Of a DNA stretch of 64,000 nt, positions 1 to 39,540 are shown one piece after another (positions within the stretch are counted from its first letter, which is position 1; every line of letters starts with the position of its first letter). This DNA is from Psammoneis japonica. Lineage: Eukaryota. Made by a program: the position numbers and the translations under genes. The notes beneath the pieces are model-generated. The model searched no databases and was not told the origin of the DNA. It saw only the letters and a program-made list of their open reading frames with translations. The DNA lies in the NCBI GenBank assembly GCA_008632985.1, contig QPGO01000065.1, forward strand, positions 310,001 through 374,000, read 5' to 3'.

Positions 1-3000
1 CAGAACATGGTCTGTGGAGCAACAGCACTGCCGTGTCTGGTCAGTTGGGCACCATGTTGATGCTTTGGGGCAGAGCTTTGTGTGCACTTGCAGCAGTGAG
101 AAGCAACAAGCAGCTTGCAAACTTTGCACAACATTTGGAATTCAAAGGAGCACCACAAGTCACCAACTTTCTCTGGAGACATGGACAAGACAAGATGGAA
201 CAATTGCTTGCTCATTTTGCATCATGCCATCTTAATGCAAAATGTGCATTTCTCCCTGGTGATCACAAATTCATGCAGTGTCTCTGGTGGCTTGAGCCAA
301 GCACTTGTTGGGCAACTCTGTCCTTTGAAAATGGCTGTCACATTGTGCAGCTGCTGTGCATCAGCAGCAGCATGCTGAGGGAAAGGCAATCTCAACTTGA
401 GCCGACTTTTGAGTGACTTTTCTTGTGTCAACAACATGAGGGCGGGTGAGATCAAAAGCCACTCTTTTTTTTAGAGCACAGCTGTTGCAATGTGGACCCT
501 GATTTTTGCACAGTCACCAACTTGCAATTGCTTTGATGAGTGGGGAACAATGTCCCCCCGTGCATTTGCAAATGCTTTGACATGCTGACAAGGCTCTCAC
601 CAGAGCACATCAAACCAAGTGGCTGCTCTCTTCATTTTGCCCCACTTTTGTTGCACCAACAATTGCTCCACAACACAAAGGGTCATCATCTTGGGGAGCA
701 AAGTTTTCTGTTTGTCTCTGCATGAGCAAACAAGCCAACAAAATCTTCCATTTGTTTGTGTGTGGCTGTTCATTGGGAGCCTGTGAGATGCAACAAGTCA
801 GAGAGTGTTTTTCTTCTGTCTTGCACAAAGAGAACACAAAGAGAGACACACTGTGACTCACCTTTTTTCTCTGGAAACATGGACAAGACAAGATGGAATG
901 GTTGCTTGCATCATGTTGTTTGATGTCATGCCACAACAATGCAAAAGATGCATTTCATTCTCCCCAGCAGAGCAGAGCTCAATTTGAGGCCCAGTGTGAA
1001 TTAAGACCCTTGTGCTGTCAGGCTCAAATGATGGATGATTCAAGGCAAGAGCTCCACAAAAACATCACAGGAACAGTGTGCGATGAATGGTCAATGGCCA
1101 TTTCCACCTGCAGTGCAGCTGCAAAAAGGTGACTGTGCTGCCACAAATGGAGGTCCAAATGAACAACACTGCACCAATCCTCATCATGTTGATGCATGGG
1201 TGGATCCTGAGCAGCTTCATTGCTGCAGTCCATGGATCAATTGGCTTGCTCCTCATGGCTCTCCTCTGTTTCTCCAGTGCCTCTCATTGAACTCTTCTGG
1301 CTTTTGAAAATTTCAACTGGTTTCTCCTTGTTGCGCTGACCTTCATGAACAAAGATGACACAGTCAACAAACATGACAGAGCACATTCTTCTGTCTTTGG
1401 ATGCTCATTTGGCAGGGCCATGGCGCATCTTTTATGTCACGTCAATGCAGTGCAGGGATCCTGCACAGGACACAGTGCCAATTCCATGCATGTGATGTGG
1501 AGGGCCTTGAATCATGACCATGTTGTCATCCTTGCTTGTCGGACGTTTTGGTTCACATGCCAAAACTCATCAACCACCCAGATTTGAAAAAGTGGAACAA
1601 CTTTTTTTCTGACAAGTTCAATGTGATCTTTCATGCAAATGCACAAAAGTGTGAAATTCGCGCGCATCATGTTGTCTGCATGGGTGCAGTTCTTGGCCGG
1701 GCCTCAACTGCGCTCCACTCTAGAAGTTGTTGCAAATTCATGCTTTCCACTTTCTGTGCAGTCTCTGTGGTGGCTGCTGGCTAGAGAGGTGCTGTCAGTT
1801 GAAGTGAAACGTCATCATGCACGCATGCCAACCACTCAAATTTTCAAAAATTCTCCGCACAAATTGGTGCTTTCTCAAACCCCTCACCCGGCACATCCCA
1901 GAACTGCCACAAAAAAAAGGTGAGGGACCTGGATCCTTTTTTAAAAGGTGAGTTTCTTGACACCCTCCTGGATCACATGCTGAAAAAGGATCCAGGGAAA
2001 CAAAGAGAAAGATCTCATTTCCCCGGAAAAGGAACATGGCTCTCATTTCTTTGCGACATTGCACAAAAGTTAGGATGCTGCACACACTTTGCTCTGACAT
2101 GGCCCTGGCAGCAGTCTGGCACATTTTGTTTGGTCTTCAGGATGAAGTGTGGATTTGCACATTGGACGATCTGGGTCTCATTGATTGCAATTGGCCATGT
2201 TTGTTCTGGACTTTGTCCGCAAGGTGTCGGCTGCTCGAGCCGCCTTTAAACCCCGACCTTTGCATCAGAAGAGGCTGCTTTCAATGTTGATCGGGTTGCT
2301 TTCTTGATTCATGTGTCATGTGCCGAGAACCTGGACAATTTAAATTGGGAGCTCAAGATAAAATGCACCAACCTCATCAAAGACGGAAATGACATCCTTG
2401 TCTTGTCCCTGTGATTCAAGCTGCAGAAAATGCCGGTGCATGCTGCACCCATCTGAGAAGCGCTGGTCCAACCGTCATGACATTGAGCAGTGGCGCTTCT
2501 GGAGATGTCTTTGCACAGCACAAGAAGGAAAGGAAAGGGTTGATTCTGCGGTGGCCAAGGCCATGAGGGAGATTGCTGACTCACTCGGCATTCTTCAAAA
2601 AATCCACATGACTAACGCCGCCAATGAGGGCGCACGGGCTGTCAAGGTCGAACCGCCCATTCTTCTGGAGAGATCACTTGTTGAGACAACATCTAAAGAA
2701 AGGCACCCTTGTGCTTGGTGTCTCTAACTTTAACTTTTAAACTGCACAACAAACTTGCACACCGTGCTGGTGAACAAACATCGCCTTTGGAGATCAACGC
2801 TTTAGCACTGCGAACTCAAGGGGAACTTCGCACCCGCCTTCCACCGACAGCTTTGCGAGGAGATCCCCACGCTAAGTAAATTTGACTTGGCACTCCTCTG
2901 TTGACATGTCCTTCATGAATCGTCGTGAGAAATGACCCCATCCAACATGTGAACCTGTTCCGGTTCATCCAAGTCAATCATGAGTTGTTTGGACAGCTTA

Positions 3001-3370: not shown

Positions 3371-5717
3371 CGCTATGGGCATAAAAGGCTGCCAATTGCT
3401 GGTGTGTCACCTTGTCGAGAAGGATGGAATGTCGTTTGATGACTGATGACTCATGCACCGTTTTGCGGCACAGAGCGACGGTGCGTGATAGAGAGACGCT
3501 GCATTTGTATGTTGACGCCAGTTGGCTTGTCTCGGAAACATGTCAATCTCATCAGTGGACCCATGCCGTTGGGAGATGGTGTGCAGTCGGTGCAGCTGAT
3601 GGATTTGTGGATGGTGCAGCACTTGGCATGACTGCAGGCATGCGTGACGGTGACGGCACCGGTCAGTGCGACAAAGCTCCCATCACGTTTCGTATAAGTT
3701 GTCCTCGTCATCAATCAAAACGGTACAGGTGCACACGCGAAGAATTGTTAAAATCTGTGGTTGGCATTCTGGTGCCTCCGCCCGCATGGAGAACAAGGAC
3801 AAAAAGTGGCTTGTTGACTTGAAACTGCATCACGTCGAAGTTGTGTTGTTTATCCAGCCAATTGCACTGGCGGCGGTTGGAGCCTGTGTACTACTGTCAA
3901 TCAATGTGGTTGTATCCTTTTTATCTGGTGGCGGTGGGTACCCCTGCATGCTACTTTTGCTGGTGGTGGTTGGAGCTTTTTTGCGACTAGGCCCCAGCAG
4001 TGGTAGAAGTGGGAGCTTATGTACTGCCAGCACTGGTGGCGGTGGGAGCCTGTACCGGTACAGTAACACCACTGGCACTGGAGGTGGTTGGAGCCTTTTG
4101 CCACTAGCACTGGTGGCAACAGGTGCCTGTGCACTGCTGTTGTAGCACTGGTGGCGGGCGGTGGGAGCCTGTGTAGCTGCCAGCACTGGCGGCGGTTGGA
4201 GCCCGTGTACTGCTAGCAAAATCGAGGTGGTTGGATCCTTCTATCTGGCGGCGGTGCCTGCCCCTGTATAATGCTGGCACTTGTGGTGGTTGGAGTGTTT
4301 CTACTGCTGACACTGGTGGCAGTGGGAGCCTGGTTACTACTTCTAGCACTGGTGGCGGTGGGAACCTTCGTAGCTGCTGGCACTGGTCGAGTCGGTTGGA
4401 GCGTGTGTAGGCTACTGCCAGCAATCGAGGCGGTTGGAGCCTTTTTGTCTTTGTCTGCTGCTGGCACTAGTGGTGGTTGGAGCGTTTCTGCTACTAGAGC
4501 ACTGGTGGCAGTGGGAGCCTAGTTACTGCTAGCACTTGTGGCGGTGGGAACCTGCGTGGCTGCTAGCTAGCACTGGTCGAGGCGGTTGGAGCGTGTGCAG
4601 GCTACCACCAGCAATCAAGGCGGCTGGAGCCTTTTTGTCTTTGTCTGCTGCTGGCACTGGTGGTGGTTGGAGCGTTTCTGCCACTAGAGCACTGGTGGCA
4701 GTGGGAGCCTAGTTACTGCTAGCACTTGTGGCGGTGGGAACCTGCGTGGCTACTAGCTGGCACTGGTCGAGGCGGTTGGAGCGTGTGTAGGCTACCACCA
4801 GTAATCGAGGCGGCTGGAGCCTTTTTGTCTAGTGGCAGTGGGTATCTCTGTGTGCCACTGGCACTGGCGGTTGACAGTGGGAGCCTGGTTGCTGCTGCCG
4901 GTGGCACTGGTGCGGTGGGATGCCGGCACAGGCACTGGAGGCGGTGGGATCCTCATGCTACTAGCACTGGTGGCAGCAGGTGCCTGTGCACTACTGCTGT
5001 AGCACTGGTGGTGTTGGGAGCCTGCATGCCACTGGCGCTGGTGGTAGTTGGAGCCTGTGCACTACTGGCTATCGAGGCGGTTGAATCCTTTACAATACGA
5101 TCACAAAGACACACTGCTAGAAGTGCTGGATCACGACAGACACTTAGAAGCAGTCAATTTCAAACCGGTAAAAGAATTTCCAAAGACAATGTAGAATAGC
5201 AGTGGATAGAATTGCATCATTAAATGTGATTACTTGATAGATGATCGAGTCGAAACCGCATTGTTGAATGCGCAGCACACTGCACCACCAACTTTAAAAA
5301 AAGTCTAGCGTGTTTCATTTGCACTCTGGTGTCAACTGCTTCCATCTGAAAATCGTCCATGCCAGATCCGCCCGAGTTCTTGTTATCTAGGAACCTGCGC
5401 CATTGAGCAAGCGTAAGCTGGCATCAAGGTCAACTCGAACGCTCCGACGTGAACGAGCATGTGACACATGGCTTGCCTTTGGGTTCCAGGCTAATTTTAT
5501 GCACAATCCTTCAATGTAAATATGTAACATCAATGACTGCTTCTTTGTGCTGACAATGAAGGAGTTGTTTTGCACTATCTTGTTGTCTCTTACAACCTTT
5601 TCAACTGCCTTTCTCGCAACCGCTTGATGTCGGATCTTTTGATGTGCTTGTGTGTTTTTCGATTTTTCGCGCAGCGCCGCGCTGTCCCCCGTTTTTTAAA
5701 TGTCCAGGTCTCCATTC
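3204..5717. mobile_element. Non-autonomous TIR DNA element, 2.5 kb, perfect 40-bp terminal inverted repeats and 4-bp target-site duplication ACGA
   Basis: 3204-3243 GAATGGAGACCTGGACATTTAAAAAACGGGGGACAGCGCG is the exact reverse complement of 5678-5717. ACGA at 3200-3203 and at 5718-5721. No transposase ORF recognised inside. Confidence 0.85.
3850..5085 (-). repeat. Low-complexity tandem repeat, minus strand encoding broken TQAPTATSA-type Thr/Ala/Pro/Ser repeats (mucin-like pseudogene cargo), with a 190-bp higher-order unit
   Basis: Recurrent gcactggtggcggtgggagcc motif. The near-identical unit gYaatcRaggcggYtggagcctttttgtct recurs at 4421, 4611 and 4801. Frames are broken by stops and shifts. 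Confidence 0.75.
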
Positions 5718-7824: not shown

Positions 7825-10032
7825 GGTAAAGCACCCAGAAGCCCAGAAGGAAACCAGCAACTTGCCAACGAAACACAGTCACTGCCTGCATGTTGGACGC
7901 AGGACGCACAGCGCTTTCAAGATGAGCCGTAGAAATAGCCTGTACTGTACGGAACGGTCGGAGACATTTCTACATAAAGGAGGGAAGACATTTCTACACT
8001 TATAGGAGGGAAGAAGGGTCATTGCTCTTTGTTACGTTTGTTGTCAGTTGACACTTTCCTCATGGATTCTCATGGATCCTCTTCATACAAATCTACGAGC
8101 GGAACTGAGTAGGGCGGAGCAAGGTCATAATTACAAAAAGTCATTTTCATATACTGCGTTTGCTTCGTATAAAGTACGAGAGAAAGTCATTCAATTGACA
8201 AAACGGTCATTTTCTCAGTCATCCACATGAATCCACATGGTATAAATCTACGTACGAGAAATCAACGGTCAATGCAAAGAGTCATTCTCTAAACTCCGAT
8301 TCCTTCGTACAATGTACGTGAAAAGTCATTGAAAATTTCAAAATTTCCATGAGGATGACTGAGGATTCGTGAGGATCCGTGAGGATCCGTGAGAAAAAAA
8401 ACACACGACACAAACCCGACCCCCCAGGTCGCTGTTATGAGCTTAGCATCCAACGCCGTCGCGATCGCTGCTTTCTGTGGTTGTACTAGTACGTAGGTGT
8501 CGTGTGACTGAACCGTCACTTCAGCTGGGATCGAAGACATGTCGAGACCGCGACGCTGTCCCAGCCGACGGACAGTGGTCCTTGCTACGACAAGAACAAG
8601 AAACCCTGCCAAATCATCGATCTCTTTGGATTGTTGAATGCTCTTTCTCTACCGGAACGCTACATCATCACGACATGCCATCGTCTTGTGGTTTTGGTGA
8701 CGGATGAAATCGAGAGGTACCAGATAGTGGCTGCTGGAAGCAAGGTGAGCTTCTAAAGACAGACAACGAATCTGGAAATGGCTGTCATCTAACTGAGACA
8801 CCGCTCATTGTTTTTACAATTCTATGGGTTTTTTGTGGAATCAATATGCAGACTGCTAAGTTGAAATTTCGAAGACTCACCTTTACGAAGGAGCAGGAGC
8901 AGGCGAAAAAAAGAGGACGCTAAAGCCGCTCGACGCGTTCTTTTCTGTGTTTTGGACACGAGTTTGCGTCTGCTACACCCCTAAATGCCTTACGTGACTG
9001 AGACTTGCGGATTGACCTCGGATGGAAGCTGTAAGAACTTTCGAATGTTTTCAGGCTCTCATTCGAAGTATCCGTAACACGAGGGCTGAGTACAACGTTA
9101 AGCCGGGGAGCGAACCAGGGCGACTGTAGTCGCGAGCGAAGATCTGCTTTAGGACATTGAAACAGAGCTCAAATCTCTTGTTGCTCTTGCTAAGCTCGAC
9201 CCGGATAAGGTAGCTGTGCGTGCAGCTGGAAGTAAAGATGCCAAAGAAATGATGGAGATTGGCGAGTCTGTTAAGATTGTAGTCCAAGATGGCGTTAAAG
9301 CGAATTTGCCGCTCTCGGGATTGATTGACGCTGAGAAGGAACGCCAGTGGTTGCAAAAACAAAGCGAAAAGCTGACAATGGAGATCCAGAAGCTTACATG
9401 GAGATTGAAGTCCAGTGGATTTGTTGATAAGGCACCTGCTGCTGTTGTACAGCAAGCCAGGATTAGCTTGCAACACTGGAAGATCACTTTTCCTAAATCG
9501 AAAGCAGCCTTTTGGCATTTCCCAAGTAGAACTCTCAGATTTCGTCTTATCTATATAGAGCATCTCTCTAGCTAGTTCAAAACTAACTTCACGTCTTCTT
9601 CCCCAGATTTGATGATTGAGGAAGGGGTTATGGCAACTGAATGCTGAACAAGACACATTGTCAAGAACAGAATAAGGCGAGCGAAGCTTACAATTGAACC
9701 GCCGACTATTACAAACTACTCTCCTTGGTAGAGGGAGTTTTAGCATTACTTTCGAACATGCAAACTTAGTCGATTGCAGTTGTACGACGTCGATGGACGT
9801 TCCCACATGCCAGAATTGCAAAACATGCTTTGCATTGACATTCAATGTTCAGATACATCTCAACTTGACTAGAGCACAGTGCTCTACAGAACAAGGCAAT
9901 CAAAGGGAACCGCCGACTGTTGCAAATTACTCTCCCTCGTGCTCATCGAGGGAGCATTGGCATGAGTTTCAAACATGCACACATGTGCTAGATGGACGTT
10001 GCTAGAGGGCCCAGCAGCAACAACATCGCGAC
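7825..10032 (+). repeat. Segmental duplication copy A (inverted relative to copy B 20750-23160 and copy C 37636-39540)
   Basis: Near-identical ORF translations in all three places (e.g. MTLSSWILMDPL..., ...ERQWLQKQSEKL...). Copy A lacks ~320 bp at ~8640 that is present in B and C. Confidence 0.95.
8640..9480 (+). pseudogene. Valyl-tRNA synthetase C-terminal fragment (copy A), intron retained, with stops and a deletion
   Basis: SLPERYIITTCHRLV; gtgag...intron; LDTSLRLLHP*MPYVTE; LIRSIRNTRAEYNV; LPLSGLIDAEKERQWLQKQ...RLKSSGFVDKAPAAVV (ValRS anticodon-binding domain and coiled-coil arm). Confidence 0.85.
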
Positions 10033-12190
10033 GCCTGCCAACTTGCTTGCCAATGCGTTGACATTGCATGGATTGCTGATTTGCTTGGGGTGTGCTGTGC
10101 GTCAAACCGTGGGAGGAGAACTGGTCAGTTATGAAGACATTTACACAAGCGTGACCAGTCCAAGTCCTCATCGGGACCAATGGCATTTGTTGTTCATCGG
10201 AACAAGTGCATGACATGACGTGCAGGATTCAGCATGTTGGTTTGGACCTGGCCGGGAATTGGACCTTGCGTTTTTCGCTGGTCCCTGCGTGCTTGTTTGT
10301 GTCTTCTGTGCAGGTGTTGCTGTTTGAAGGCTCCATTGCACCTGCCAGGTCCTTTGCAAGAGGCGGCCCATGGAGAATTTAAACATGAGCTGTTCTTTGC
10401 CTTACTTTCTCTGAAGCCTTCTTTGGCATGGTGTGGTGGAAGGGTTTTGGAGATTCCGCTCAGAAGGTCTTCCAACTGGCTGCTTGGCCACCTCTGTGCA
10501 ACTGTCATTGTTGCGGGCATTTGCACCTTTCCACTGCCCATTCTCCCACTCTTCAAACTGCTTTTCATTCCATGACTATTGCTGCAGATCACCGGCATCC
10601 CAGCCCATCCAATCAAGATGCGCGTTCTGACGCTGCCATCAACACGCAACTTTCAATCGGCTCTCTGTGTGTCTGCTCGCGATTGTCATGGCATGCACCG
10701 TGGATTGCCAGCTGGACAAGGTGGTTTGTCTCATGGGATCAATGCTGGGTTGTCCCATCTTGGTCTTTCCGCCGCAGAATTTGCAATCGGCTGGATCCCA
10801 ACATTGCACCTTCGAGAACGTTCTTGAATGACGTCGTGTCGGGGATGGGTTTCATTGCAATGGTCGTTGCATCCACAATCACCATTCTCACATGGAACAA
10901 CAGATGAAACAGATGCTCGAGCAACACATCCCTTTCTTTTTAACTGATGGAGACTTCATTGGACTTTAACAACTTTGCCTTGACGTCTTCATTGGATGCC
11001 TTGTCCGGCATGTCTTCATTCAATGCTTGTTTTGGTTCCGGTGACGACCCGCCAGAGTCACAAAGGGGTCCTTTAGAGCCAAAAAGCGAGATTCGCCCGA
11101 GCTCTTTCGAACTTCCTTGCAGGTCCTGCGACATGTGCTCAACTCTCTCCAAGCCAAGCCGTTCAAGCATGGAAGTGGCTTTCTTGCTGCATCGCTGCCT
11201 GCCTTTTGAGCTGGTTTTGTTCGGCCATCACAGCACTTCTTCGTCAATCTGATTTTGTTGCTCAACCATGGATCCTGTGACAAAAGGAGCGGAGAGAGCC
11301 CGTTGTTTGATCAAAGTCCGGTTCATGCTTCGTTCCTTCATTTTGGACATTCCTTCACAACCGCGCATGTAAAACAGGCTCCTTCTCCAAGCAACCATGC
11401 CGACTTGACTTCGCCTCACGTGGCATCATCCCCGGTTCCCTCCGAGTCTACTCGATCATCCACGAAAGCTCTCGGGTTTTGACGTCGACACTGTCATCAC
11501 ACGCCAGCAGCGACGGTTGACGACGATGATTGCACACTCTCGTTTGCGGCCTCTTCTCGCCCATGCCATTTGATGCACTGCTCACCATCGACACCAACAA
11601 ACTCCATTGTGTTGCTGATGACATTATGTACGGCAACAACTGCATTCATTCATCATTGGAGAATTCTGTTTTCAATGACACGTGTGCCAAATTCGCAAAG
11701 ACGTTTCGAGTGGGTCCACAATGTGACGCTCTCCCGTGAGACCTGGGCCCATGTGCGGCATGCGAAGTGTGGCACTTCAGATCTTCCCAGTCGCAGGTCT
11801 ACTCTAGTGGTCTCTCGACAGGAAAGAGTGTGAAGCATCCACTGGTTCTCTTTCACGCACATTGTTGAGACAACTGCTGTCGGTGTTTCCAAGTGACGGG
11901 ACACTGCACCAGCACCAGTGCAAGAATGATGACACTGAAATGCAAGTCCATGGCTCGACCAATGGTTGTTGGACAGCAAATAGTGGCAGGTGCCGTGCAT
12001 CATTGTTGCACATCTTGTCGCTCGAGACGACGTTGATGCGTGCTCCATGTGATTGCAAAATCTTGTCCGCAAAAGTTCAACACACTTCTTCCATTTCTTT
12101 TCTTGGTTGATGGAGGACGAGTTCCAGGTCTCGAAACTGAAAGCCAATGTTGCAATCACAGAACGACTTGCCCGCAATGTCACACCGGTA
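9760..12190. other. TpA-depleted block of degenerate, probably TE-derived sequence
   Basis: Very few TpA. Left edge aligns with TA-rich paralog 20750-21090 and shows directional TA>TG/CA changes. Confidence 0.85.
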
Positions 12191-12726
12191 AGCTTTTTCT
12201 CGATGCGATGCTGATGGTGCTTGCATCTTCAATCTGGCATCCTTTTTTTTGTTTGTGCTCTATCGCGTTCATCTTATCGGTTGTAGGCGTGTGTTCGCCA
12301 TCATGACAAATCAAAAACGTTCGTTACTGGAGCGTTTTTATTATTCAAAGTCATACGCGCTCTTTCTATACCTTATATATTAATGTTTTTTGAAACACAT
12401 AAAAATCATTTGATTAGATGGACTGAAATTTTCCAAAGGGGGTACATCACGATTTTTTTCAGTCGGACTAATCAAATTCAATTTTATATGCTATACGGCG
12501 CATAGGATATAAATTATATCTTCTACGTTGCCATAAAGAAGACTTTCATACCAATCTCATTTCCGTAGATATTGATTGAGACACAGATACGACGACGACG
12601 ACTCTTTGTGTAGGGCCCCTAAAGTAGAACACAACATCGTCAAAAAATACACCGTAGTCCTTACTACCGTAGCCCTAATCTTCTCTAATATAGTAGAGGG
12701 CCATCTACTAGAGTATGGAGTAGGGC

Positions 12727-14098
12727 CTACTTGACTGCTTGCTTCCCTTCCTTGTCAATTACTGGAAAGATTCGCATTGGATGTGCTTCCGTATTGAAGA
12801 CATGCTTGTTTAAAATGTCCACGGGTGTATCTGGATCCTGTAATAAATACAAATACTTGAGAGTCTCTGCCAAGAAGAAGGACTCCATCTTGTCTTGTGG
12901 CGGTCTGTTCACGTCTTGTACATTTTTCAACTGTCCATAGGCAATCTTGGTTTTGCAATACCGCTCGATTGCAGAAAATATTTCCCATCCCCATTCTCGG
13001 TACACTGGATCACCCGTGAGTTGATTGAGAATAAACATGGACTCGACCGCTTCCGGTCTCAAGAGATAATGAGGAGAGCCGTGACCAATCGCAAAGTCCT
13101 CGTCGGGGTGGAACTGAACCCATTCCGCCGAAATACCCGTGTTCATGCGAGCGTACATTTGATAGCACGTGTAGGTAAGAGCCTTTCCAGTCTTGAGGTC
13201 GCGTTGAGCTCGGTCCGAATCAAGGCCTTCCGGGTCCGTGTAGGCTCCAAGCGCGAGCAATCCTAAACGTAAAACAAGAAAAGCAAGCCATGGGATTGAA
13301 CATTCGGACCAACAATACTACCAGCATCAGACAACACGGGAGAAATGCGAAAAACTTACCTCCCATGAAGCAAACCAAATGGTCCATCTTGTGATCGATA
13401 CGAGCACTATTCTTGTCGGCAATGTAGGTGAGACCGGACGGCGTTGACGTGTGTAGCAATTCATCATGCATGCCCTGGATCGCCTTGTCATACATTTTTC
13501 GGTACATCGGTTCCGTCTTTCCGCCCTGCAACCACACCTTGAGCATGTACTCGTAGAAACTGTCCGCCATGGCCCCAAACGTAATTTTCTGATTGGCAAA
13601 GACAGGTTTATCCTGATGGTTCTTGACATAGTAAGGAAAGAGTCCATTTTTGGGTGACACACTGTCCATGATTTCAAAAATGTTGTTTGCTTTTGTGGCG
13701 TATTCTGGTTTGTTGATGGCCTTGGCAAGATACCGAAACTCGAGTTGCAATGTTCCAAACTCGGCAAGAATAGCATTGCCTCCAGCCCAACTAATGTTGC
13801 TTTTCGCCCCCGTTACCAAGTTGATTTGTCCACAGGGAATACCAGATGGTGAGTCGAATGCTTTAAACAATCGCTTTCCCAAATCCGATGCCTTGTCTAA
13901 AAACGCCTTGTCGCCCGACCAATCATACGCCGACAACAATCCGCTCAAACTCCGAATTGTCGTTTCAAAGACAGAGACTCCTCGCCCCGCATGTTCGTGG
14001 CGTAATTCATCCCTCACCCAATCTCTCGCCTTGTAGAATTCGTCCTTGAGTCCCATGAGCCACAAGGTATCCAGAGCATCCACCAGGGTAGTCCCCAT
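12727..14098 (-). pseudogene. GH47 alpha-1,2-mannosidase, 5'-truncated copy 1 (intron 13263-13359); spliced frame open but N-terminus replaced by a PPR fragment
   Basis: [84 protein letters not shown] are GH47 motifs; GTAAGT...TAG intron. Confidence 0.9.
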
Positions 14099-19632: not shown

Positions 19633-20749
19633 ATGTCCATGAGGTTCAGCCCAACGTTTTACGCGCAAGAGGAGTGGAAGAAGGCTCTTCTCCTGACGCT
19701 CGGCACCCATGTATTGCTTCCTGCGGAGGAGAGGGCGAAGAACGTCGTGCTGGAAAACTCGACGAGGAACCCTGTGACCGTGCGGCGAGAGTACGACGCG
19801 AAATTCGAGTGAGTTTTTGTGCTGATGATTGCTAATTCGCACCGACTTTTGTTCTGAGGTTCCGAGGATACTCACCTCTTGGTATTGCTGTTTGTCGTAT
19901 TACCGCAGGGCAAGCAAGGCCGAAGGATTACGTTTGAGCCAGCGGAAGGCGGCAGCTGTCGAGGCGAGGGGAAAGCGGGCAGCTTCGTTGGCTGAAGCAA
20001 GGGCTACCGAGGCCGAAGATCGCGAGCGGTTGGCGCGCTCGACGGCTGCTGTGACGATGATGGAGGCGGAGCTGCAGCGCGAGGACGACGCGATTAATCT
20101 GGCCGAAGAATCTGAGAACGAGTGGAGGGCGGAACACAACGACTTGACCCGCGAGTGGAACGCTCACACCTTCTTTTTGGGGACAGTTCCAGTCGGCGCA
20201 GATATTGAGCCGTTGCTGCTACAGTTTCATGCGTCAGATGTCCCGGCTGCGCTCAAGGTTAGGTCTGCGATGGACATTTACCTCAAGTACAGTGTCGACG
20301 CAATCGAGGATCTCATGTATGCTGTGAAGAACTGGGGTGGGGAAGAGACCGACGTTTCCCGCTCGCTTCCGTTTGATGACCCGGAGTTTGTTCAAACCTA
20401 CGGTCCCGCTCAAATCCTCGCCTTCCGCCGCCCGAACGAAAAGCACTGGGAACTCGCCAAACGTTTTGCAACCTACATTGGCCTCCTCGAATGGGCCGCG
20501 CGTGTGCCTCCCACCCCTGTCAAGTCTAGTAGGAATCCACCCACTGTGGAATCTCCAAGCATTGCTGAGGCAGAGGATGCCAGCTCTTTTGAGTCCCCTT
20601 CCAAGCGTGCTCGCACCATGCCTCGCATCGAGGAAGCAGCTTCTTGTGAGGATGCGGATCGTGCTTTCCTCGTTAAGCGCATTGCAGAGCTGGAGCTGGA
20701 GCTGAAGCTTCGCGGTCGCGAGGAACAAGGCAAGACCCGTCTTGCCTAA
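19633..20749 (+). CDS. Hypothetical protein, ~338 aa, two exons (19633-19808, 19909-20749), coiled-coil rich
   Basis: ATG 19633. Removing the GTGAGT...GCAG intron 19809-19908 joins the two ORFs in frame (KFE|ASKAEG). GC-rich coding-like composition. No family recognised. Confidence 0.65.
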
Positions 20750-23160
20750 GTCGCGATGTTGTTGCTACTGGGCCCTCTAGCAACGTCCATCTAGCACATG
20801 TATGTATGTTTGAAACTAATACTAATGCTCCCTCGATGAGCACGAGGGAGAGTAATTTGTAATAGTCGGCGGTTCCCTTTGATTGCCTTATTCTGTAGAG
20901 TACTATGCTACCGTAGTCAAGTTGAGATATATCTGAATATTGAACATCATTACAAAGCATATTTTGCAATTCTGGCGTAGGAACGTCCATCGACGTCGTA
21001 CAATTGCAATCGACTAAGTTTGTATGTTCGAAAGTAATGCTAAAACTCCCTCTACCAAGGAGAGTAGTTTGTAATAGTCGGCTGTTCAATTGTAAGCTTC
21101 GCTCGCCTTATTCTGTTCTTGACAATGTGTCTTGTTCAGTATTCAGTTGCCATTACCCCTTCCTCAATCATTAAATCTGGGGAAGAAGACGTGAAGTTAG
21201 TTTTGAACTAGCTAGAGAGAGAGAGATATAGATAAGACGAAATCTGAGAGTTCTACTTGGGAAGTGCCAAAAGGCTGCTTTTGATTTAGGAAAATTGATC
21301 TTCCAGTGTTGCAAGCTAATCCTGGCTTGCTGTACTACAGCAGCAGGTGCCTTATCAACAAATCCACTGGACTTCAATCTCCATGTAAGCTTCTGGATCT
21401 CCATTGTCAGCTTTTCGCTTTGTTTTTGCAACCACTGGCGTTCCTTCTCAGCGTCAATCAATCCCGAGAGCGGCAAATTCGCTTTAACGCCATCTTGGAC
21501 TGCGATCTTAACAGACTCGCCAATCTCCATCGTTTCTTTGGCATCTTTACTTCCAGCTGCATGCACAGCTACCTTATCCGGGTCGAGCTTAGCAAGAGCA
21601 ACAAGAGATTTGAGCTCTGTTTCAATGTCCTCAAGCAGATCTTCACTCGCGACTACAGTCGCCCTGATTCGCTCCCCGACTTAACGTTGTACTCAGCCCT
21701 CGCGTTACGGATACTTCGAATAAGAGCCTGAAAACATTCGAAAGTTCTTACAGCTTCCATCCGAGGTCAATCCGCAAGTCTCAGTCACGTACCGGTAAGG
21801 CATTTAGGGGTGTAGCAGACGCAAACTCGTGTCCAAAACACAGACAAGAACGCGTCGAGCGGCTTTAGCGTCCTCTTTTTTTCGCCTGCTCCTGCTCCTT
21901 CGTAAAGGTGAGTCTTCGAAATTTCAACTTACCAGTCTGCATATTGATTCCACAAAAAACCCATAGAATTGTAAAAACAATGAGCGGTGTCTCAGTTAGA
22001 TAACAGCCATTTCCAGATTCGTTGTCTGTCTTTAGAAGCTCACCTTGCTTCCAGCAGCCACTATCTGGTACCTCTCGATTTCATCCGTCACCAAAACCAC
22101 AAGACGATGGCATGTCGTGATGATATAGCGTTCCGGTAGAGAAAGAGCATTGAATTCTTCTTCTGTCATCGGTCCATCTACACTCCGCTCAGATAAGTTC
22201 GATTCGCTCAAGTCTCTCAGAGCGCTGCCCTTTACAAACTTGCAACAATTCCAAAGCTTGTTTGCAAAATTACGATTGGCCTCGATCTTCTCCATGTTGA
22301 GTGGAATATGTTGTCCCGGCGTGACATCGCCACCCCGCGGGGCTCTGGGCTGCCATCGGTGGAAGGTATCGAACTCAGGTTGCTGAGGCAGGTATGGAGC
22401 TGGTAGTCATCAATCTTGTCCTCCTTACTGGCCACAGCTACTCCTGTCACCGCTTCCTATTGGGGGGCATCCAACAATCCAAAGAAATCGGTGATTTGGC
22501 AGGGTTTCTTGTTCTTGTCGTAGCAAGGACCACTGTCCGTCGGCTGGGACAGCGTCGCGGTCTCGACATGTCTTCGATCCCAGCTGAAGTGACGGTTCAG
22601 TCACACGACACCTACGTACTAGTACAACCACAGAAAGCAGCGATCGCGACGGCGTTGGATGCTAAGCTCATANAGCGACCTGGGGGTCGGGTTTGTGTCG
22701 TGTGTTTTTTTCTCACGGATCCTCACGGATCCTCACGAATCCTCAGTCATCCTCATGGAAATTTTGAAATTTTCAATGACTTTTCACGTACATTGTACGA
22801 AGGAATCGGAGTTTAGAGAATGACTCTTTGCATTGACCGTTGATTTCTCGTACGTAGATTTATACCATGTGGATTCATGTGGATGACTGAGAAAATGACC
22901 GTTTTGTCAATTGAATGACTTTCTCTCGTACTTTATACGAAGCAAACGCAGTATATGAAAATGACTTTTTGTAATTATGACCTTGCTCCGCCCTACTCAG
23001 TTCCGCTCGTAGATTTGTAGGAAGAGGATGCATGAGAATCCATGAGGAAAGTGTCAACTGACAGCAAACGTAACAAAGAGCAATGACCCTTCTTCCCTCC
23101 TATAAGTGTAGAAATGTCTTCCCTCCTTTATGTAGAAATGTCTCCGACCGTTCCGTACAA
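20750..23160 (-). repeat. Segmental duplication copy B
   Basis: Reverse complement of ~7945-10032 and direct copy of 37636-39398; contains one N at 22673. Confidence 0.95.
21300..22325 (-). pseudogene. Valyl-tRNA synthetase C-terminal fragment (copy B)
   Basis: TPGQHIPLNMEKIEANRNFANKLWNCCKF; SLPERYII; intron; LWNQYADW*VEISK; LRLLHP*MPY; LIDAEKERQ...GFVDKAP. Confidence 0.9.
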
Positions 23161-23399: not shown

Positions 23400-23900
23400 C
23401 TCATGGTTGGTCTTTGCGGTGTGTTGTGAAAGACATGTGGAACAAAAATTGTGTGGGATTCTACGCAGGTCTCTCTGGTCACCCGGAATTGAGGACACCT
23501 GTGACATTTTTGGCGACCGCGGACAGCGCAATCCCCATGATTCCCATGATGATGTTGGAAGCGACGCACAATCACAGCACTGTGAATTGGAAAGGAGCCT
23601 CTCGACTTTGTTGTCAGAGATCTTCTGCTCGTGAAAATGTCTTGGTTCAGCACTTTGTTGCTTGTGGTTTTTGAATTGTTGCAATTTCATTCTTTTGTTG
23701 TTGGGAGATGATGAATGTTGTGCAATTTAGAGCCATTCTCAACTGTGGCACTCAGCGTTACTTCGAAAGACCCCACTCTAGTTGCCGGGCAAAAAACACT
23801 CGAGCGCAATTTGGCGGGGTCGCTGCAGATTTTCGTGAGGCGTCCGTCCTTGTGGAGAAGCATTTTGTTGCGTTGGGGTGGACTTTTCTCCTGTGCCATC
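23400..23900. other. Small TpA-poor patch
   Basis: Only a handful of TpA over ~500 bp, against TA-rich flanks at 23160-23390 and beyond 24270. Confidence 0.5.
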
Positions 23901-30003: not shown

Positions 30004-31356
30004 CCTGGTGGATGCTCTGGATACCTTGTGGCTCATGGGACTCAAGGATGAATTCTACAAGGCGAGGGATTGGGTACGGGATGAATGATTCGTGGCGGGG
30101 CGAGGAGTCTCTGTCTTTGAAACGACAATTCGGAGTTTGGGCGGATTGTTGTCGGCGTATGATTGGTCGGGAGACGAGGCTTTTTTAGACAAGGCGTCGG
30201 ATTAGGAAAGCGATTGTTTAAAGCATTCGACTCACCATCTGGGATTCCCTATGGACAAATCAATTTGGTAACGGGGGCGAAAAGCAATATCGGTTGGGCT
30301 GGAGGCAATGCTATTCTTGCCGAGTTTGGAACATTGCAACTCGAGTTTCGGTACCTTGCCAAGGCCATCAACAAACCAGAATACGCCACAAAAGCAAACA
30401 ACATTTTTGAAATCATGGACAGTGTGTCACCCAAAAATGGACTCTTTCCTTACTATGTCAAGAACCATCAGGATAAACCTGTCTTTGCCAATCAGAAAAT
30501 TACGTTTGGGGCCATGGCGGACAGTTTCTACGAGTACATGCTCAAGGTGTGGTTGCAGGGCGGAAAGACGGAACCGATGTACCGAAAAATGTATGACAAG
30601 GCGATCCAGGGCATGCATGATGAATTGCTACACACGTCAACGCCGTCCGGTCTCACCTACATTGCCGACAAGAATAGTGCTCGTATCGATCACAAGATGG
30701 ACCACTTGGTTTGCTTCATGGGAGGTAAGTCTTTTGCATTTCTCCCGTGTTGTCTGATGCTGGTAGTATTGTTGGTCCTCATTTTCAATCCCATGGCTTG
30801 CTTTCTTGTTTTACGGTTAGGATTGCTCGCGCTTGGAGCCTACACGGACCCGGAAGGCCTTGATTCGGACCGAGCTCAACGCGACCTCAAGACTGGAAAG
30901 GCTCTTACTTACACGTGCTATCAAATGTACGCTCGCATGAACACGGGTATTTCGGCGGAATGGGTTCAGTTCCACCCCGACGAGGACTTTGCGGTTGGTC
31001 ACGGCTCTCATCATTATCTCTTGAGACCGGAAGCGGTCGAGTCCATGTTTATTCTCGATCAACTCACGGGTGATCCAGTGTACCGAGAATGGGGATGGGA
31101 AATATTTTCTGCAATCGAGCGGTGTTGCAAAACCAAGATTGCCTATGGACAGTTGAAAAATGTACAAGACGTGAACGGACCGCCACAAGACAAGATGGAG
31201 TCCTTCTTCTTGGCAGAGACTCTCAAGTATTTGTATTTATTACAGGATCCAGATACACCCGTGGACATTTTAAACAAGCATGTCTTCAATACGGAAGCAC
31301 ATCCAATGCGAATCTTTCCAGTAATTGACAAGGAAGGGAAGCAAGCAGTCAAGTAG
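30004..31356 (+). pseudogene. GH47 alpha-1,2-mannosidase, 5'-truncated copy 2 (intron 30725-30820), with a stop and frameshifts in the first 200 bp
   Basis: Near-identical to the reverse complement of 12727-14088. Indel and TGA at ~30086, 1-nt deletion near 30205. Homology to copy 1 flank continues to ~32075 (vs ~11965). Confidence 0.92.
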
Positions 31357-33449
31357 GCCCTACTCCATACTCTAGTAGATGGCCCTCACGGTAGTACACT
31401 ACGGTGCATTTTTTGACGATGTTGTGTTCAACACAAGAAGAGTCGTCGTCGTTGTATCTGTGTCTCAATCAATATCTACGGAAATGAGATTGGTATGAAA
31501 GTCTTCTTTATGGCAACGTAGAAGATATAATTTATATCCTATGCCCGTATAGCATATAAAATTGAATTTGATTAGTCCGACTGAAAAAAATCGTGATGTA
31601 CCCCCTTTGGAAATTTCAGTCCATCTAATCAAATGATTTTTATGTGTTTCAAAAAACATTAATATATAAGGTATAGAAAGAGCGCGTATGACTTTGAATA
31701 ATAAAAACGCTACAGTAACGAACGTTTTAGATTTGTCATGATGGCGAACACACGCCTACAACCGATAAGATGAACGCGATAGAGCACAAACAAAAAAAAG
31801 GATGCCAGATTGAAGATGCAAGCACCATCAGCATCGCATCGAGAAAAAGCTTACCGGTATGACATTGCGGGCAAGTCGTTCTGTGATTGCAACATTGGCT
31901 TTCAGTTTCGAGACCTGGAACTCGTCCTCCATCAACCAAGAAAAGAAATGGAAGAAGTGTTGAACTTTTGCGGACAAGATTTTGCAAGCACATGGAGCAC
32001 GCATCAACGTCGTCTCGAGCGACAAGACGTGCAACAACAATGCACGGTACCTGCCGCTATTTGCCGTCCAACAACAAGCATGTCTTCAATGCGGAAGCAC
32101 ATCCAATGCGAATCTTTCCAGCAATTGACAAGGATTGTTGTGTTCAACACAAAGAGTCGACTCTCTAAAACAACCACCTGTTCACAAGCACTCATGCACA
32201 CAGCTGCACCTGCCCATTTGCAAGCGCCGAGAGTCAGTCGTTGTCGTTGGGATGTTGATCGACGTGGCGTTTGGGCACTGGTTTTGATTGCCCGAGTCAA
32301 TGCCGGTGAACAATTGTTTTCGTCGTTGCTCAAAACCATTGAGGCCATTTCGTCACAACAAGCCAGAGCATGGGCAACACTTGTTCATTCCCATCGTGCC
32401 ACAGCATTTGCAACAAGACCTTGCAGGGTGTGCCAGAAATTCGAGTGGAGTGCCAGCAGCTGTGCCTTTGGATGCGAATGAAAAGGAAACGCGAGGCATG
32501 CCCGCATCGCATGCACTCAATGACATTCCAGACTTGTGTTCGAGGAGTGTGCTCATGGAGACATCGAACAAACGGGTCTCCCTTGGGCTGGAGGCAGCCA
32601 TGGTTTCTCTCCATTGCACTCATGGGGACCATTTTTTGATGCCGCTGGTTGCGCCTCTTAAGTTCTTGGCATGGCCTTGGGGGAGGTGCGCATGGTGAAT
32701 CTTGGCTGAAGGGCGACAGATGACACTGGGGGCAGGATCCGAACATTCTTTTCTGAATCGCAACGCGTCTTCCAACGGGAGCTTTCGGTCCTTGTTTAGC
32801 ATGTGGATCATGTGTCACTGGACGGTCTTGATGGCATGAACCAAATGACTTCGACAAGTTTGGGTGCGGATGCAGAACAAAAAAAAGAGCTCGATTCCCT
32901 GGGCGAATGCATCATCGCGAAATTGAGCAGCAGCGTGTCGCGTTTCACAGTGCTTTTACGCCATGTTGCTGCACACCGGACCAGAATGATGGAGACATGC
33001 GAGTCGATGCAGTTGCACCTGCTTCTGCCACCACATGCAATCTGCACGCTGCTAACCATCGTGAGGGATGACCAGGGATGACGCTGCGCAAAAGGTGCCA
33101 TCCATGCTCTCTGTACGAGAGGGACTCGGCAAACCTTGATTAATCCATGAATGGCCAACAAGACCAAAACAGCGGACCTGCCAAGTTGCATGCGTTGAAC
33201 GGCGGCATGGACAGCAGCTCCAATGCCTCAGTCAGTCACTCGTCCTGCCAATCTCGGGCGGAAGACTCGTGAGTTTGCAGTTGACAAGGTGGAGATCCGC
33301 AAGACCAGTCAGCAAGCCAATGTTGGGTGAGTGACGTCTCGAGCGAGTGACAAGTGCTCACATCAAGAACGCGAGGCTGGCTTTGCACTCCAATCTTGTT
33401 GGGAAGCGAAGGCGAGTGCAACAGGTGCAGCTTCTCAAAGGCTTGGCAT

Positions 33450-33590
33450 CAGTGTGTCTCGGCAGGCACGGACTTGAGCTGCTTGCAACCAGAGAGACTC
33501 AGTTGTTGAACCTCCGGGAGCCACTTCGCATCTGACGTCAAGGCTGCAATGTCCACATTTGAAAAATCGAGCGAAACATCCTGCCTTGCT
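33450..33590 (-). pseudogene. Possible leucine-rich-repeat fragment
   Basis: VSLDFSNVDIAAL...LPEVQQLSLSGCKQLKSVP fits LxxLxLxxCxxLxxxP. Confidence 0.35.
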
Positions 33591-35198
33591 TGTCGTGTTT
33601 CATTGTGGTGGCCAATCTCGCTCGCGACACGGGCTTGGCCCATGCGGCAAGAGCAAGTGTGGGGCTTGGCACAATTTTGACTCGCTGCAAGTAGAAGTGC
33701 AACACACGTTCAATCCGTTCAATGCGAGATTCTCTTCCATGGTAGAATTGCGGATTGTTGTGCTGTGTTTTGACACACATTGGAGAGCAACACCCGAAAT
33801 CGCAGTGTGGAAGCAGGAAAAAAGAGTTCTTGGCCAAGAGATGTCTTGTTTGGAGAGTGCGAGCTGCTGTCGCCGCCGTTCGAGTCAATGCTTCACCGGG
33901 TTGGGTGAACACTTGCCAAACGTTTTGACTGCTTTTGGTTGCTCTGCCAACCGTCTTTCTTTGTTGTCAAGGCTTTCTCGGCGATCGGATGATCATTGAA
34001 TGGAGGCGTGGGAGGAGGGAGAGGCCAGTGGATCGATTTGTCTGCTGGGACTGCGAGCTTTGTTGGGGTTGGGACATTGAATGGCATCAAGATGGGGCAG
34101 TCGGCCTCGGAGGATTGCATGACCCTCTGAAGGTGCTCGTGGGTTTTGGGTGGTGGACGTGCAGGTCCACCTAGAATCGGGTCGCCACTGTCAGGCAACG
34201 ACCGTGCGTCCCATTCTTGCTTGGGCTCCTGTCCGACGCTTCTGCACTTGGCTACCCAGTGGTCCATTTCTTGTGGAATTTGCGACAAAGAGGGGTGTGG
34301 AAACTTGACTGTTGACCCCATCTTCGAGTGGGGCACTTTTTCGTAATCTTGCTGCTTGCAAACGCATCGTGTCTGGGACCAAGAACGTGAAGCAAATTCC
34401 GATTTCTAAAGCTGCAGCAGCACATGCATTTCGGCAGAGGGGAATGTTGGCGGTTGGGGTGATTTGCCAAGGCTTGGGCACTGTCTGGCTCTCAAGAGGG
34501 ACAAAAGCCTGTTTCTGCATGACTCCGAACCGATGGCGTGACTCTTTTGCATTGAAATGTCGAACCGGGACATCACAAAAGATCTGTGGACACAAACAGC
34601 TCGAAAACCATCATTCCACTTCTCTTGGAGCCCAGTGGATCTGGCCAAATTGATGAAGCAGGGAGTGTGTCATCTCCGTCACGAGGACACCAAGCATGGC
34701 AATGTGGGACCTCTTGCTGTGGCACTTGGTGGCTGGACCGCACTGGACGGGACCGCTGCAACGAAGCAAATGAATGACTCGCAATTGCTTCCTGTTGCCT
34801 TTGTCAGTGACACTGAGTCGCTGTTTTGACGATGAGTGGCACTCTGTGTCGCACATTGTGTCTTGTCAACGAGCGTCTCTAGGTGACAATCAACAGGGTG
34901 CGTGGTGCCAAGCGGTGCATTCTTTGAACACGTGTTCATTTGTGATGATTTCTTGTCATTAATCTGACAATTGTGGAGCTTGTCTTTCATGCTCTCTTCC
35001 TCCCCTGGGATTGCGTGACAGATCGCATGAACTCTCGGAACTGATGGGTTGTGCGACTCGACAGAATCGTCACTGTGAGTCGCACCAACTTAGTGTGGTT
35101 CGGGCATCAGAGACACCAACCTCGTTTGAGTTCTTGGGCGCATTCCGCGATTCCAGAGGCAAGAAAGAAGAACGGTTAGACAAGCTCCACGTAAACCT

Positions 35199-37112: not shown

Positions 37113-37635
37113 GGTTGATGCTTGATGATGACAAAAGACGAGTTGTCCGTTTTGTGAGATGGAGTGGGAAAGCGCAAAGCGTGGAAGATGATATGAGCAC
37201 TGGTGGCTACGTGGTTTCTACGTAGGTCCCAGAGATCACAAAACCGGGACACGTTTTTTTTCTGTTATATCGAAACCTGACCAAAACACCGTTTAGCATC
37301 CCTCGGCGCCAATGTCAACACCGTTTCGGAGACTCATGACGTGATCAACTGTTGCGATACCGACAGGTGATGATTTGTACTATTGGTGCTTCCTACGTGT
37401 TATCGTCTTACAACTTCTACTACCACAACAACTCAGGTCGAATGTTCTCGGTATCATTGCCCTACAAATAGCTACGTACTCTAGAGAGTACAACTCTTTC
37501 AAACTTTTGCTACCGGTATGCACAGTGCGCGCGGAGTGGGGATAGAGTCGTCGCGTCGTATCTGTGTCTCAATCAATATCTCCGGAAATGAGATTGGTAT
37601 GAAAGTCTTCTTTCTTGGCAACGTAGAAGATATAG

Positions 37636-39540
37636 TCTGGATCTCCATTGTCAGCTTTTCGCTTTGTTTTTGCAACCACTGGCGTTCCTTCTCAGCGTCA
37701 ATCAATCCCGAGAGCGGCAAATTCGCTTTAACGCCATCTTGGACTGCGATCTTAACAGACTCGCCAATCTCCATCGTTTCTTTGGCATCTTTACTTCCAG
37801 CTGCATGCACAGCTACCTTATCCGGGTCGAGCTTAGCAAGAGCAACAAGAGATTTGAGCTCTGTTTCAATGTCCTCAAGCAGATCTTCACTCGCGACTAC
37901 AGTCGCCCTGATTCGCTCCCCGACTTAACGTTGTACTCAGCCCTCGTGTTACGGATACTTCGAATAAGAGCCTGAAAACATTCGAAAGTTCTTACAGCTT
38001 CCATCCGAGGTCAATCCGCAAGTCTCAGTCACGTAAGGCATTTAGGGGTGTAGCAGACGCAAACTCGTGTCCAAAACACAGACAAGAACGCGTCGAGTGG
38101 CTTTAGCGTCCTCTTTTTTCGCCTGCTCCTGCTCCTTCGTAAAGGTGAGTCTTCGAAATTTCAACTTACCAGTCTGCATATTGATTCCACAAAAAACCCA
38201 TAGAATTGTAAAAACAATGAGCGGTGTCTCAGTTAGATAACAGCCATTTCCAGATTCGTTGTCTGTCTTTAGAAGCTCACCTTGCTTCCAGCAGCCACTA
38301 TCTGGTACCTCTCGATTTCATCCGTCACCAAAACCACAAGACGATGGCATGTCGTGATGATATAGCGTTCCGGTAGAGAAAGAGCATTGAATTCTTCTTC
38401 TGTCATCGGTCCATCTACACTCCGCTCAGATAAGTTCGATTCGCTCAAGTCTCTCAGAGCGCTGCCCTTTACAAACTTGCAACAATTCCAAAGCTTTTTG
38501 GCAAAATTACGATTGGCCTCGATCTTCTCCATGTTGAGTGGAATATGTTGTCCCGGCGTGACATCGCCACCCCGCGGGGCTCTGGGCTGCCATCGGTGGA
38601 AGGTATCGAACTCAGGTTGCTGAGGCAGGTATGGAGCTGGTAGTCATCAATCTTGTCCTCCTTACTGGCCACAGCTACTCCTGTCACCGCTTCCTATTGG
38701 GGGGCATCCAACAATCCAAAGAAATCGGTGATTTGGCAGGGTTTCTTGTTCTTGTCGTAGCAAGGACCACTGTCCGTCGGCTAGGACAGCGTCGCGGTCT
38801 CGACATGTCTTCGATCCCAGCTGAAGTGACGGTTCAGTCACACGACACCTACGTACTAGTACAACCACAGAAAGCAGCGATCGCGACGGCGTTGGATGCT
38901 AAGCTCATAACAGCGACCTGGGGGGTCGGGTTTGTGTCGTGTGTTTTTTTTCTCACGGATCCTCACGGATCCTCACGAATCCTCAGTCATCCTCATGGAA
39001 ATTTTGAAATTTTCAATGACTTTTCACGTACATTGTACGAAGGAATCGGAATTTAGAGAATGACTCTTTGCATTGACCGTTGATTTCTCGTACGTAGATT
39101 TATACCATGTGGATTCATGTGGATGACTGAGAAAATGACCGTTTTGTCAATTGAATGACTTTCTCTCGTACTTTATACGAAGCAAACGCAGTATATGAAA
39201 ATGACTTTTTGTAATTATGACCTTGCTCCGCCCTACTCAGTTCCGCTCGTAGATTTGTAGGAAGAGGATCCATGAGAATCCATGAGGAAAGTGTCAACTG
39301 ACAGCAAACGTAACAAAGAGCAATGACCCTTCTTCCCTCCTTTAAGTGTAGAAATGTCTTCCCTCCTCTATGTAGAAATGTCTCGACCGTTCCGTACAGT
39401 ACTTGTACAAACAGTGCCGTGGCTCATCTGAATAACGAAAGCGCTGTGCGTCCTGCGTCCAACATGCAGGCAGTGATTGTGTTTCGTTGGCAAGTTGCTG
39501 GTTTCCTTCTGGGCTTCTGAGTGTCCCATTCTCAGCACCC
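37636..39540 (-). repeat. Segmental duplication copy C, including ValRS fragment 37636-38562
   Basis: Direct copy of 21392-23160. Shares with copy A (inverted) the extension gtgcgtcctgcgtccaacatgcaggcagtga that is absent from B. Confidence 0.95.

Follow-up and report, generated by a model that had tools for sequence, protein, structure and literature searches.

Why should one end of a duplicated DNA segment read TpG or CpA at most of the places where its paralog reads TpA? The question is raised by a 64,000-nucleotide stretch of the diatom Psammoneis japonica (GenBank assembly GCA_008632985.1, contig QPGO01000065.1, positions 310,001 to 374,000), here called the window, whose own numbering is used throughout. 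Three copies of a segmental duplicate (A, B and C) lie in it, and the last 283 bp of copy A, which touch a block of repeated DNA nearly devoid of TpA, carry an excess of change that falls at TpA sites and follows a three-base rule also seen in the block. The pattern is probably the mark of a DNA-level process that converts TpA to TpG or CpA, prefers TpA followed by a pyrimidine, acts on repeat-based domains and has spilled from the adjoining block into copy A.

The three copies, delimited by BLAST and pairwise alignment, are 96–100% alike over 1.7–2.4 kb, and each carries the C-terminal arm of valyl-tRNA synthetase plus its downstream non-coding DNA. Copy A lies on the forward strand at 7832–10032; the duplicate common to B spans 7946–10032, and the homology that begins at 7832 is to C alone. 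Its synthetase fragment is found at 9159–9491 (PF10458, E = 5.5e-11). Copy B (20750–23159, reverse strand), which starts directly after the stop codon of an open reading frame (ORF) at 19829–20749, serves as the unmutated comparator. Copy C (37636–39523, reverse strand) is nearly identical to B and ends at the equivalent of A position 9390, leaving the altered end of A outside its reach. An insertion of ~320 bp is common to B and C (22151–22471 and 38388–38704) and absent from A; alternatively, A has suffered a deletion.

Excess change at TpA sites in copy A

Copy A was compared with the reverse complement of B, with mismatches counted per aligned base in bins. Divergence is 3/651 (0.5%) in 7946–8600, 12/600 (2.0%) in 8600–9200, 9/396 (2.3%) in 9200–9600 and 4/150 (2.7%) in 9600–9750, and then reaches 9/98 (9.2%) in 9750–9850, 7/100 (7.0%) in 9850–9950 and 6/83 (7.2%) in 9950–10032. 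The final 283 bp (9750–10032) differ at 22 of 281 aligned positions (7.8%), as against 24 of 1647 (1.5%) in 7946–9600. Mismatches unrelated to TA sites number four in this segment, or 1.7% per base against a background of 1.5%, and the excess divergence lies wholly at TA sites. Transitions account for 19 of the 22 mismatches, and 16 of the 22 set TA against TG or CA. A first-pass annotation, made from the sequence alone, had reported about 20 differences here, 14 of them TAY>TGY or RTA>RCA (Y, pyrimidine; R, purine) and one TAG>TGG. The recount agrees in essentials, with 14 conversions in the TAY/RTA context and two in the TAR context (9804 and 9958).

The last 284 bp of copy B (20750–21033) contain 26 TA dinucleotides. 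At the corresponding sites of A, eight read TA, seven TG, nine CA and two GA, making 16 of 26 ancestral-type TA sites that are now TG or CA and showing that both strands are affected. Upstream, in 7946–9600, three of B's 74 TA sites read CA in A, and the two proportions differ sharply (Fisher test, p = 2.7e-9). The reverse case, TA in A facing TG or CA in B, is seen at one of the 87 TA sites of A; over the whole pair there are 21 forward changes and one reverse change (sign test, p = 1e-5). Per target base, conversion exceeds the background divergence accumulated since the A/B duplication ~33- to 66-fold.

The first-pass annotation had inferred dense A>G mutagenesis of both strands at TpA in copy A, varying with position, and had called it a gradient. 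Its position dependence stands, and its shape is better rendered as a ~280-bp zone of ~60% conversion with a thin tail to ~420 bp than as a smooth slope. Within the tail on the forward strand of copy A (9600–9749), two of 11 TA sites have become TG (9610 and 9642), and converted sites grow sparser going upstream, with 9642 and 9610 followed by 9060, 8786 and 8663. The region from 9000 to 9750, which had been called near-identical with TpA intact, is indeed ~98% identical, but three of its TA sites (9060, 9610 and 9642) are already converted. Beyond the last 283–430 bp of A, the rest of A, B and C shows no such excess. Because these three copies are long, near-identical duplicates and yet otherwise clean, duplication is not the trigger, in line with the initial view that duplication alone is insufficient.

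The step-like rise at about 9750 raises the possibility of a mosaic origin, in which the last ~280 bp of A would have been pasted in by gene conversion or recombination from a copy hypermutated elsewhere, with no leakage in place. Segmental duplicates and rearrangement joints abound in the region, and among the short-read-like contigs of a public run the B-type version is two to three times as deep as the A-type version, as expected if further copies exist. However, the thinning of conversions from 9642 to 8663 is gradual and has no single hard breakpoint, just two versions of 9780–9932 occur among the contigs compared, and the same TA-erasing process would still be required in the donor. A pasted origin is therefore improbable, and leakage of the process into copy A is favoured in what follows.

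TpA-depleted blocks and the third-base rule

The altered end of A is contiguous with a block whose depletion was correctly recognised in the first-pass annotation: TA observed/expected is 0.14 in 10001–12000 and about 0.6 in ordinary window sequence. This block (b2) is one of four large TpA-poor blocks that make up about 31% of the 64-kb window and, together with one small stretch, amount to 19.8 kb. It occupies 10033–12200, or about 9800–12200 by composition, with TA observed/expected at 0.14, CpG at 0.58–0.82 and TG/CA at 1.4–1.8. Block b1 runs from 1 to about 2600 (TA observed/expected 0.03–0.20; CpG observed/expected 0.08–0.60, lowest before 1400); it is cut off by the start of the window and tapers out over about 1400–3000. 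Block b3 (31850–37200) has TA observed/expected of 0.07–0.11 with near-normal CpG (0.65–1.14) and is sharp on both edges. Block b4 (55000–64000) shows the lowest values for both dinucleotides (TA 0.02–0.08; CpG 0.02–0.23), contains ~190-bp satellite arrays, has a sharp left edge and continues past the window end.

Most edges of the blocks are abrupt, with a transition of about 100 bp or less. TG and CA in the blocks reach 1.1–2.3 times expectation, and because TA/AT is 0.07–0.13 and (CA+TG)/(AC+GT) is 1.55–2.09, the net direction inside them is TA loss. TA loss is also separate from CpG decay and saturates sooner, since b2 and b3 are TpA-free while their CpG stands at 0.58–1.14.

Block b2 is repeated DNA. 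From 10030 onward it belongs to a multi-copy family with 3–7 distinct contigs per site in the public run (80% likeness), and the other copies carry different sequence to the left of 10030, where contigs have loose ends. The divergence of the other copies at this point places a repeat junction at 10030–10033 and the affected 283 bp of copy A outside the repeat. Blocks b2 and b3 have in common only a 235–278-bp edge beside two glycoside hydrolase family 47 (GH47) mannosidase copies, and b2 has no other copy in the window.

To define the target, each TA of B was counted as one target A per strand and classed by the following base. In the A/B pair, TAY targets are hit in 14 of 31 cases and TAR targets in two of 21 (p = 0.007). 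Both GCTAG sites that had been noted as survivors near the end of A are confirmed, at 9989 and 10003, and they survive because TAR targets are spared. The blocks provide a second, independent data set that obeys the same context rule. The 102 TAs surviving in the 19.8 kb of blocks comprise 54 YTAR, 39 mixed and 9 RTAY sites, compared with 309, 947 and 534, respectively, outside the blocks (chi-square 83, p = 1e-18). Relative to ordinary sequence, block survival is 0.60 for TTAA, 0.33 for CTAG and 0.31 for CTAA, and 0.02–0.06 for ATAT, ATAC and GTAC. For b1 and b4 combined, the block/non-block ratio is 0.01 for TAC, 0.04 for TAT, 0.12 for TAG and 0.23 for TAA; for b2 and b3 combined, a TAC deficit of 10.9 per kb is offset by a TGC gain of 10.1 per kb. 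TAY targets number 0–3 per kb in b1 (1–3000) and b4 and 27–77 per kb in ordinary 1-kb bins.

The same rule bears on a rival that keeps the direction of change and alters the chemistry, namely error-prone, polymerase-eta-like repair synthesis in silenced DNA, acting without an adenine deaminase. Polymerase eta makes WA>WG errors (W, A or T) in antibody hypermutation, and such an enzyme would suit the A>G transitions, which follow a T and fall on both strands. CpG decay in b1, b2 and b4 likewise attests to frequent base damage and repair. However, the WA rule predicts AA>AG changes, and the A/B pair holds one (9779), while AAC and AAT are about as frequent in the blocks as outside them (ratios 0.90–1.30). 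AA is thus not hit as the WA rule requires, which makes a polymerase-eta-like error process the weaker alternative. It is unlikely also in that the strong 3'-pyrimidine rule and the near-total erasure of TAY suggest a dedicated activity.

Several features of the blocks and of TA-rich or TA-poor DNA nearby deserve description. The satellite arrays of b4 (57782–63997) have a ~190-bp unit with about 70% matches between units, a strong positive AT skew and TG more frequent than CA. A TA-poor stretch at 23400–23800 has no paralog and may be due to chance. At 4272–4830, a GC-rich 190-bp tandem repeat is present in three copies with 91% matches, and its consensus unit is rich in CTAG, a TA context that resists erasure; TA observed/expected is 1.16 in 4001–5000.

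The TpA-free blocks are also rich in long stop-free frames, such as one of 672 aa. None of the 86 block ORFs of at least 90 aa has a Pfam match at E 0.001 or better, and the four weak matches among them (E 0.002–0.008) are below Pfam cut-offs and involve neither viral nor transposon domains. The 672-aa frame (35202–37217, reverse strand) contains 2 tyrosines, 20 cysteines and 21 histidines, lacks a Pfam match and finds a single weak match (E 6e-4) among 1.84 billion proteins. To all appearance these long frames are not genes and arose as a side effect of the erasure of TAA and TAG stops. A protein-level polarity test, in which Tyr>Cys/His changes were expected, was abandoned: the block ORFs have no usable Pfam or protein matches and offer no conserved tyrosines to compare.

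Direction and timing of change

Comparison of the copies indicates that loss of TA in A is very probably the direction of change. An internal repeat that A and B both contain can serve as outgroup, with unit 1 at 9685–9775 and unit 2 at 9905–10000. By this measure, unit 2 of A is derived at four sites (three TA>TG and one T>G) and B at one. The first-pass annotation had proposed that further copies be checked for CA/TG as the ancestral state; the answer obtained is partial, with the internal repeat at four to one for TA loss and copy C uninformative. Other members of the b2 family point the same way: of the 13 variant rows listed for 10060–10147, seven have TA in those members and TG or CA in the window, no row shows the reverse, and one further row sets CA against CG. 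The stretch beside the segment, unchanged between A and B, has a TA/AT of 0.95–1.10, and because this shared neighbour is equally TA-rich, high TA is native to the locus. In addition, the A/B differences obey the context rule of the blocks and adjoin a block, and the mutated copy is the one that touches b2.

The opposite polarity would require a process like the repeat-induced point mutation (RIP) of fungi to have acted in B, where TG and CA would be ancestral and C>T at CpA (G>A at TpG) would have altered the last ~300 bp. Several observations lean this way and weigh against TA loss in A. Segment B has a TA observed/expected of 1.08, at the 97th percentile of ordinary 283-bp windows, and its TA/AT of 0.96 and (CA+TG)/(AC+GT) of 1.00 meet fungal RIP thresholds. 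Segment A is at the 98th percentile for TG+CA, so that both segments lie in a tail and composition percentiles and RIP indices are ambiguous on polarity. One internal-repeat site, which reads GCAT in unit 1 and in A and GTAT in B, points to CA>TA in B. Nor can the tree be rooted with three copies, since C ends at 9390 and B and C are near-identical, which leaves A versus B/C without polarity. Two exact-pattern scans of metagenomes for an outgroup to 9750–10032 returned no matches. Finally, when the 16 sites are read in the RIP direction, their third-base pattern (14/16) does not differ significantly from the baseline (27/40; p = 0.19).

Mutation of B by such a process is nonetheless very unlikely. 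Four internal-repeat sites oppose it, the neighbouring stretch that A and B hold unchanged is just as TA-rich as segment B, and the changes are concentrated at a junction with a TpA-free block that exists in A and not in B. Copies B and C, moreover, are near-identical 1.9-kb duplicates that are otherwise untouched, and the window lacks TA-enriched, CA/TG-poor repeat blocks; only the opposite kind is present.

A technical origin, through base-calling or assembly errors at modified bases or through the collapse of diverged haplotypes, can be judged against the contigs of the public run. The A-type version is present there in 9780–9932 at word depths of about 33–96, alongside the B-type version at 139, which makes an assembly artefact unlikely. 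The signature also extends over about 20 kb and several sharp-edged blocks with a consistent three-base rule, and other b2-family copies in the run show mixed TA and TG/CA states. The points that could be raised in its favour are a single N at 22673, within copy B, the presence of only 46% of sampled words of 9000–12000 in the best run, and the coverage of 9523–9778 and 9959–9980 by the B-type contig only. On balance, an artefact is barely credible. The B-type depth, 139–209 over 9317–9980 and two to three times that of A-type contigs, reflects either further B-like copies or a hypermutated A on one haplotype only.

A second paralog pair, at the edges of b2 and b3, bears on when TA was lost. 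The segment at 11965–12242 (forward strand) is 96% identical to 32075–31800 on the opposite strand. These edges, which lie beside the inverted GH47 copies, are TA-free in both blocks save for two TAs kept in b3, and it follows that most of the depletion is older than the inverted duplication. Their differences comprise three CpGs and two TAs in b3 that face TG or CA in b2, one CA facing TG at the same dinucleotide, and one transversion; CpG decay and TA erasure therefore both went on after the duplication. Dinucleotides that read CA in one copy and TG in its paralog occur at 9839–9840 and at 12001–12002, and such a pairing would result if an ancestral TA had been hit on one strand in one copy and on the other strand in its paralog, or if an ancestral CpG had been deaminated in that way.

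The inverted segmental duplication itself spans 12082–13882 and 30202–31960 at 98–99% identity and contains the two GH47 copies. Next to each GH47 copy comes a TpA-free block, and beyond that block lies a valyl-tRNA synthetase fragment, from A in one case and from C in the other, giving an arrangement of A, b2 and GH47 that is mirrored as GH47, b3 and C. For the GH47 frame at 30163–31356, the best 120 relatives have 50–67% identity, with the best diatom matches at about 66%, and the named organisms among those 120 are all diatoms except for one other ochrophyte, Tetraparma. Besides the two mannosidase copies, genes of the window encode a protein kinase, an amino-acid kinase, a Myb-domain protein and a pyridine-nucleotide oxidoreductase. 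At 42308–49858 on the forward strand, two adjoining frames (883 and 1632 codons) are in phase and parted by a single stop at 44957–44959; neither has a Pfam domain, and the DNA here shows positive AT skew.

A candidate process and its meaning

The process envisaged here would turn TpA into TpG or CpA through A>G change on either strand of the DNA, favouring an A that precedes a pyrimidine, and would act on defined domains of repeated DNA until almost no TA remains. Block b2 (10033–12200) would be one such domain, from which the process would extend ~280 bp past the repeat junction into copy A, and thinly to ~420 bp. This spill-over is legible site by site because an unaffected paralog, B, exists. 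Its effect on unique flank and on a satellite array argues for action on the DNA in place, and editing of retro-element RNA does not explain it. Its chemistry may follow the proposal made for Bigelowiella natans, in which a targeted deaminase converts adenine in DNA to hypoxanthine, and its targeting may depend on a chromatin or silencing domain that is nucleated on the repeat and has a soft edge of ~0.3 kb, not on duplication as such. Two considerations count on the other side: deamination is argued by analogy and domain targeting is something we infer, and the other block edges are sharp within about 100 bp, so the 280-bp spill-over may not be general.

According to the main text of a 2026 preprint, TpA>TpG/CpA mutations arise de novo in mutation-accumulation lines of B. 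natans at about 6e-7 per site per generation, in an integrated giant-virus region and a virophage region; the genome contains 124 TpA-poor clusters, mostly without annotated genes, and an ADAT2 homologue is named as the candidate enzyme (Mettrop et al., bioRxiv 10.64898/2026.01.13.699255). As far as that text describes it, the B. natans process resembles the pattern in the window in being almost entirely A>G/T>C, in occurring only at TpA and on both strands, in being confined to domains and in running far above background, and its long-term footprint likewise consists of TpA-poor, CpA/TpG-rich clusters. The process in the window is another case of this very recently described TpA hypermutation, not a categorically new one.

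What is new here is the lineage, the kind of target, the deeper depletion, the third-base rule and the resolved flank spill-over. Set against the main text of the preprint, the host here is a diatom and not a chlorarachniophyte, and the targets are dispersed repeat, satellite and unannotatable DNA in which no viral genes are recognisable. TA observed/expected of about 0.02–0.14 is far below the Rho of 0.45 given there for the giant-virus region. The preference for TAY over TAR and the ~0.3-kb spill into the flank are resolved here, and the words "trinucleotide", "context" and "flanking" are absent from that main text. The rate excess of 33–66-fold is lower than the 1000-fold excess stated for B. 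natans and is measured differently from it: there, mutations were caught in real time, and the evidence here comes from comparing sequences.

Fungal RIP offers a formal parallel, in that transitions in a dinucleotide context riddle repeated DNA and leave a dinucleotide footprint. RIP also leaks into adjoining single-copy DNA. Its effect on TpA is the reverse, however: RIP makes TpA from CpA and creates stops, whereas here TpA is destroyed and TAA and TAG stops are removed, leaving long empty frames, and only the 284-bp segment of B reaches RIP-like indices. The lineage is not fungal, and duplicates of 1.9–2.4 kb at 96–100% identity (A, B and C) are spared. CpG decay by cytosine methylation in diatom repeats shares the enrichment of TG and CA and co-occurs with TA loss in b1 and b4 (CpG observed/expected 0.02–0.27) and at the b2 edge. 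Unlike CpG decay, the process in the window removes TpA, and with b2 and b3 TpA-free at CpG of 0.58–1.14, the TA process is the faster of the two.

Enzymes that deaminate adenine in RNA provide the remaining comparisons. TadA and ADAT2 act naturally on A34 of tRNA, which follows an invariant U33; in bacterial tRNA-Arg, with C35, the context is U-A-C. The order TAC > TAT > TAG > TAA seen here may mirror this context, and the resemblance, together with the B. natans proposal, is the ground for suggesting deamination. DNA adenine base editors have been derived from TadA, but natural ADATs are not known to act on domains of nuclear DNA. A 3' G is generally given as the preferred neighbour for ADARs, unlike the 3' pyrimidine preferred in the window. 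Editing of double-stranded RNA by ADAR-type enzymes does share the A>G outcome and the U or T before the edited A, a preference cited in the main text of the B. natans preprint (bioRxiv 10.64898/2026.01.13.699255). ADAR editing followed by retro-copying was rejected as a candidate, as it predicts clean flanks, and both the flank beyond the 10030–10033 junction and a satellite array are affected.

Full-text literature searching found no report of a TpA-erasing signature in diatoms. Blocks of this kind mimic long open reading frames because TAA and TAG are erased, which could mislead gene callers, and they distort repeat dating and estimates of mutation bias. In-place action that reaches past its target matters for genes beside repeats. 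The three-base target rule narrows the search for the enzyme, and a natural enzyme that deaminates DNA adenine preferentially at TAY would be of interest to base-editing research.

More broadly, it is possible, though somewhat less likely than not, that diatoms, and with Bigelowiella perhaps much of SAR (stramenopiles, alveolates and Rhizaria), have a "reverse RIP", a defence based on a domain-targeted DNA adenine deaminase with tRNA-anticodon-loop-like specificity (T-A-C > T-A-T >> T-A-R). Such a defence would strip TpA out of silenced repeats, satellites and invading DNA at a pace well above that of methylated-CpG decay and would spread a few hundred bases beyond its target, disabling elements not by stops but by altering tyrosine codons and abolishing TATA and poly(A) signals. 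As far as is known, the 2026 preprint is the sole report of targeted A>G hypermutation occurring naturally in nuclear DNA, and it concerns one organism. A second case, among algae that are ecologically dominant and genetically tractable, would mean that the process is no quirk of a single lineage.

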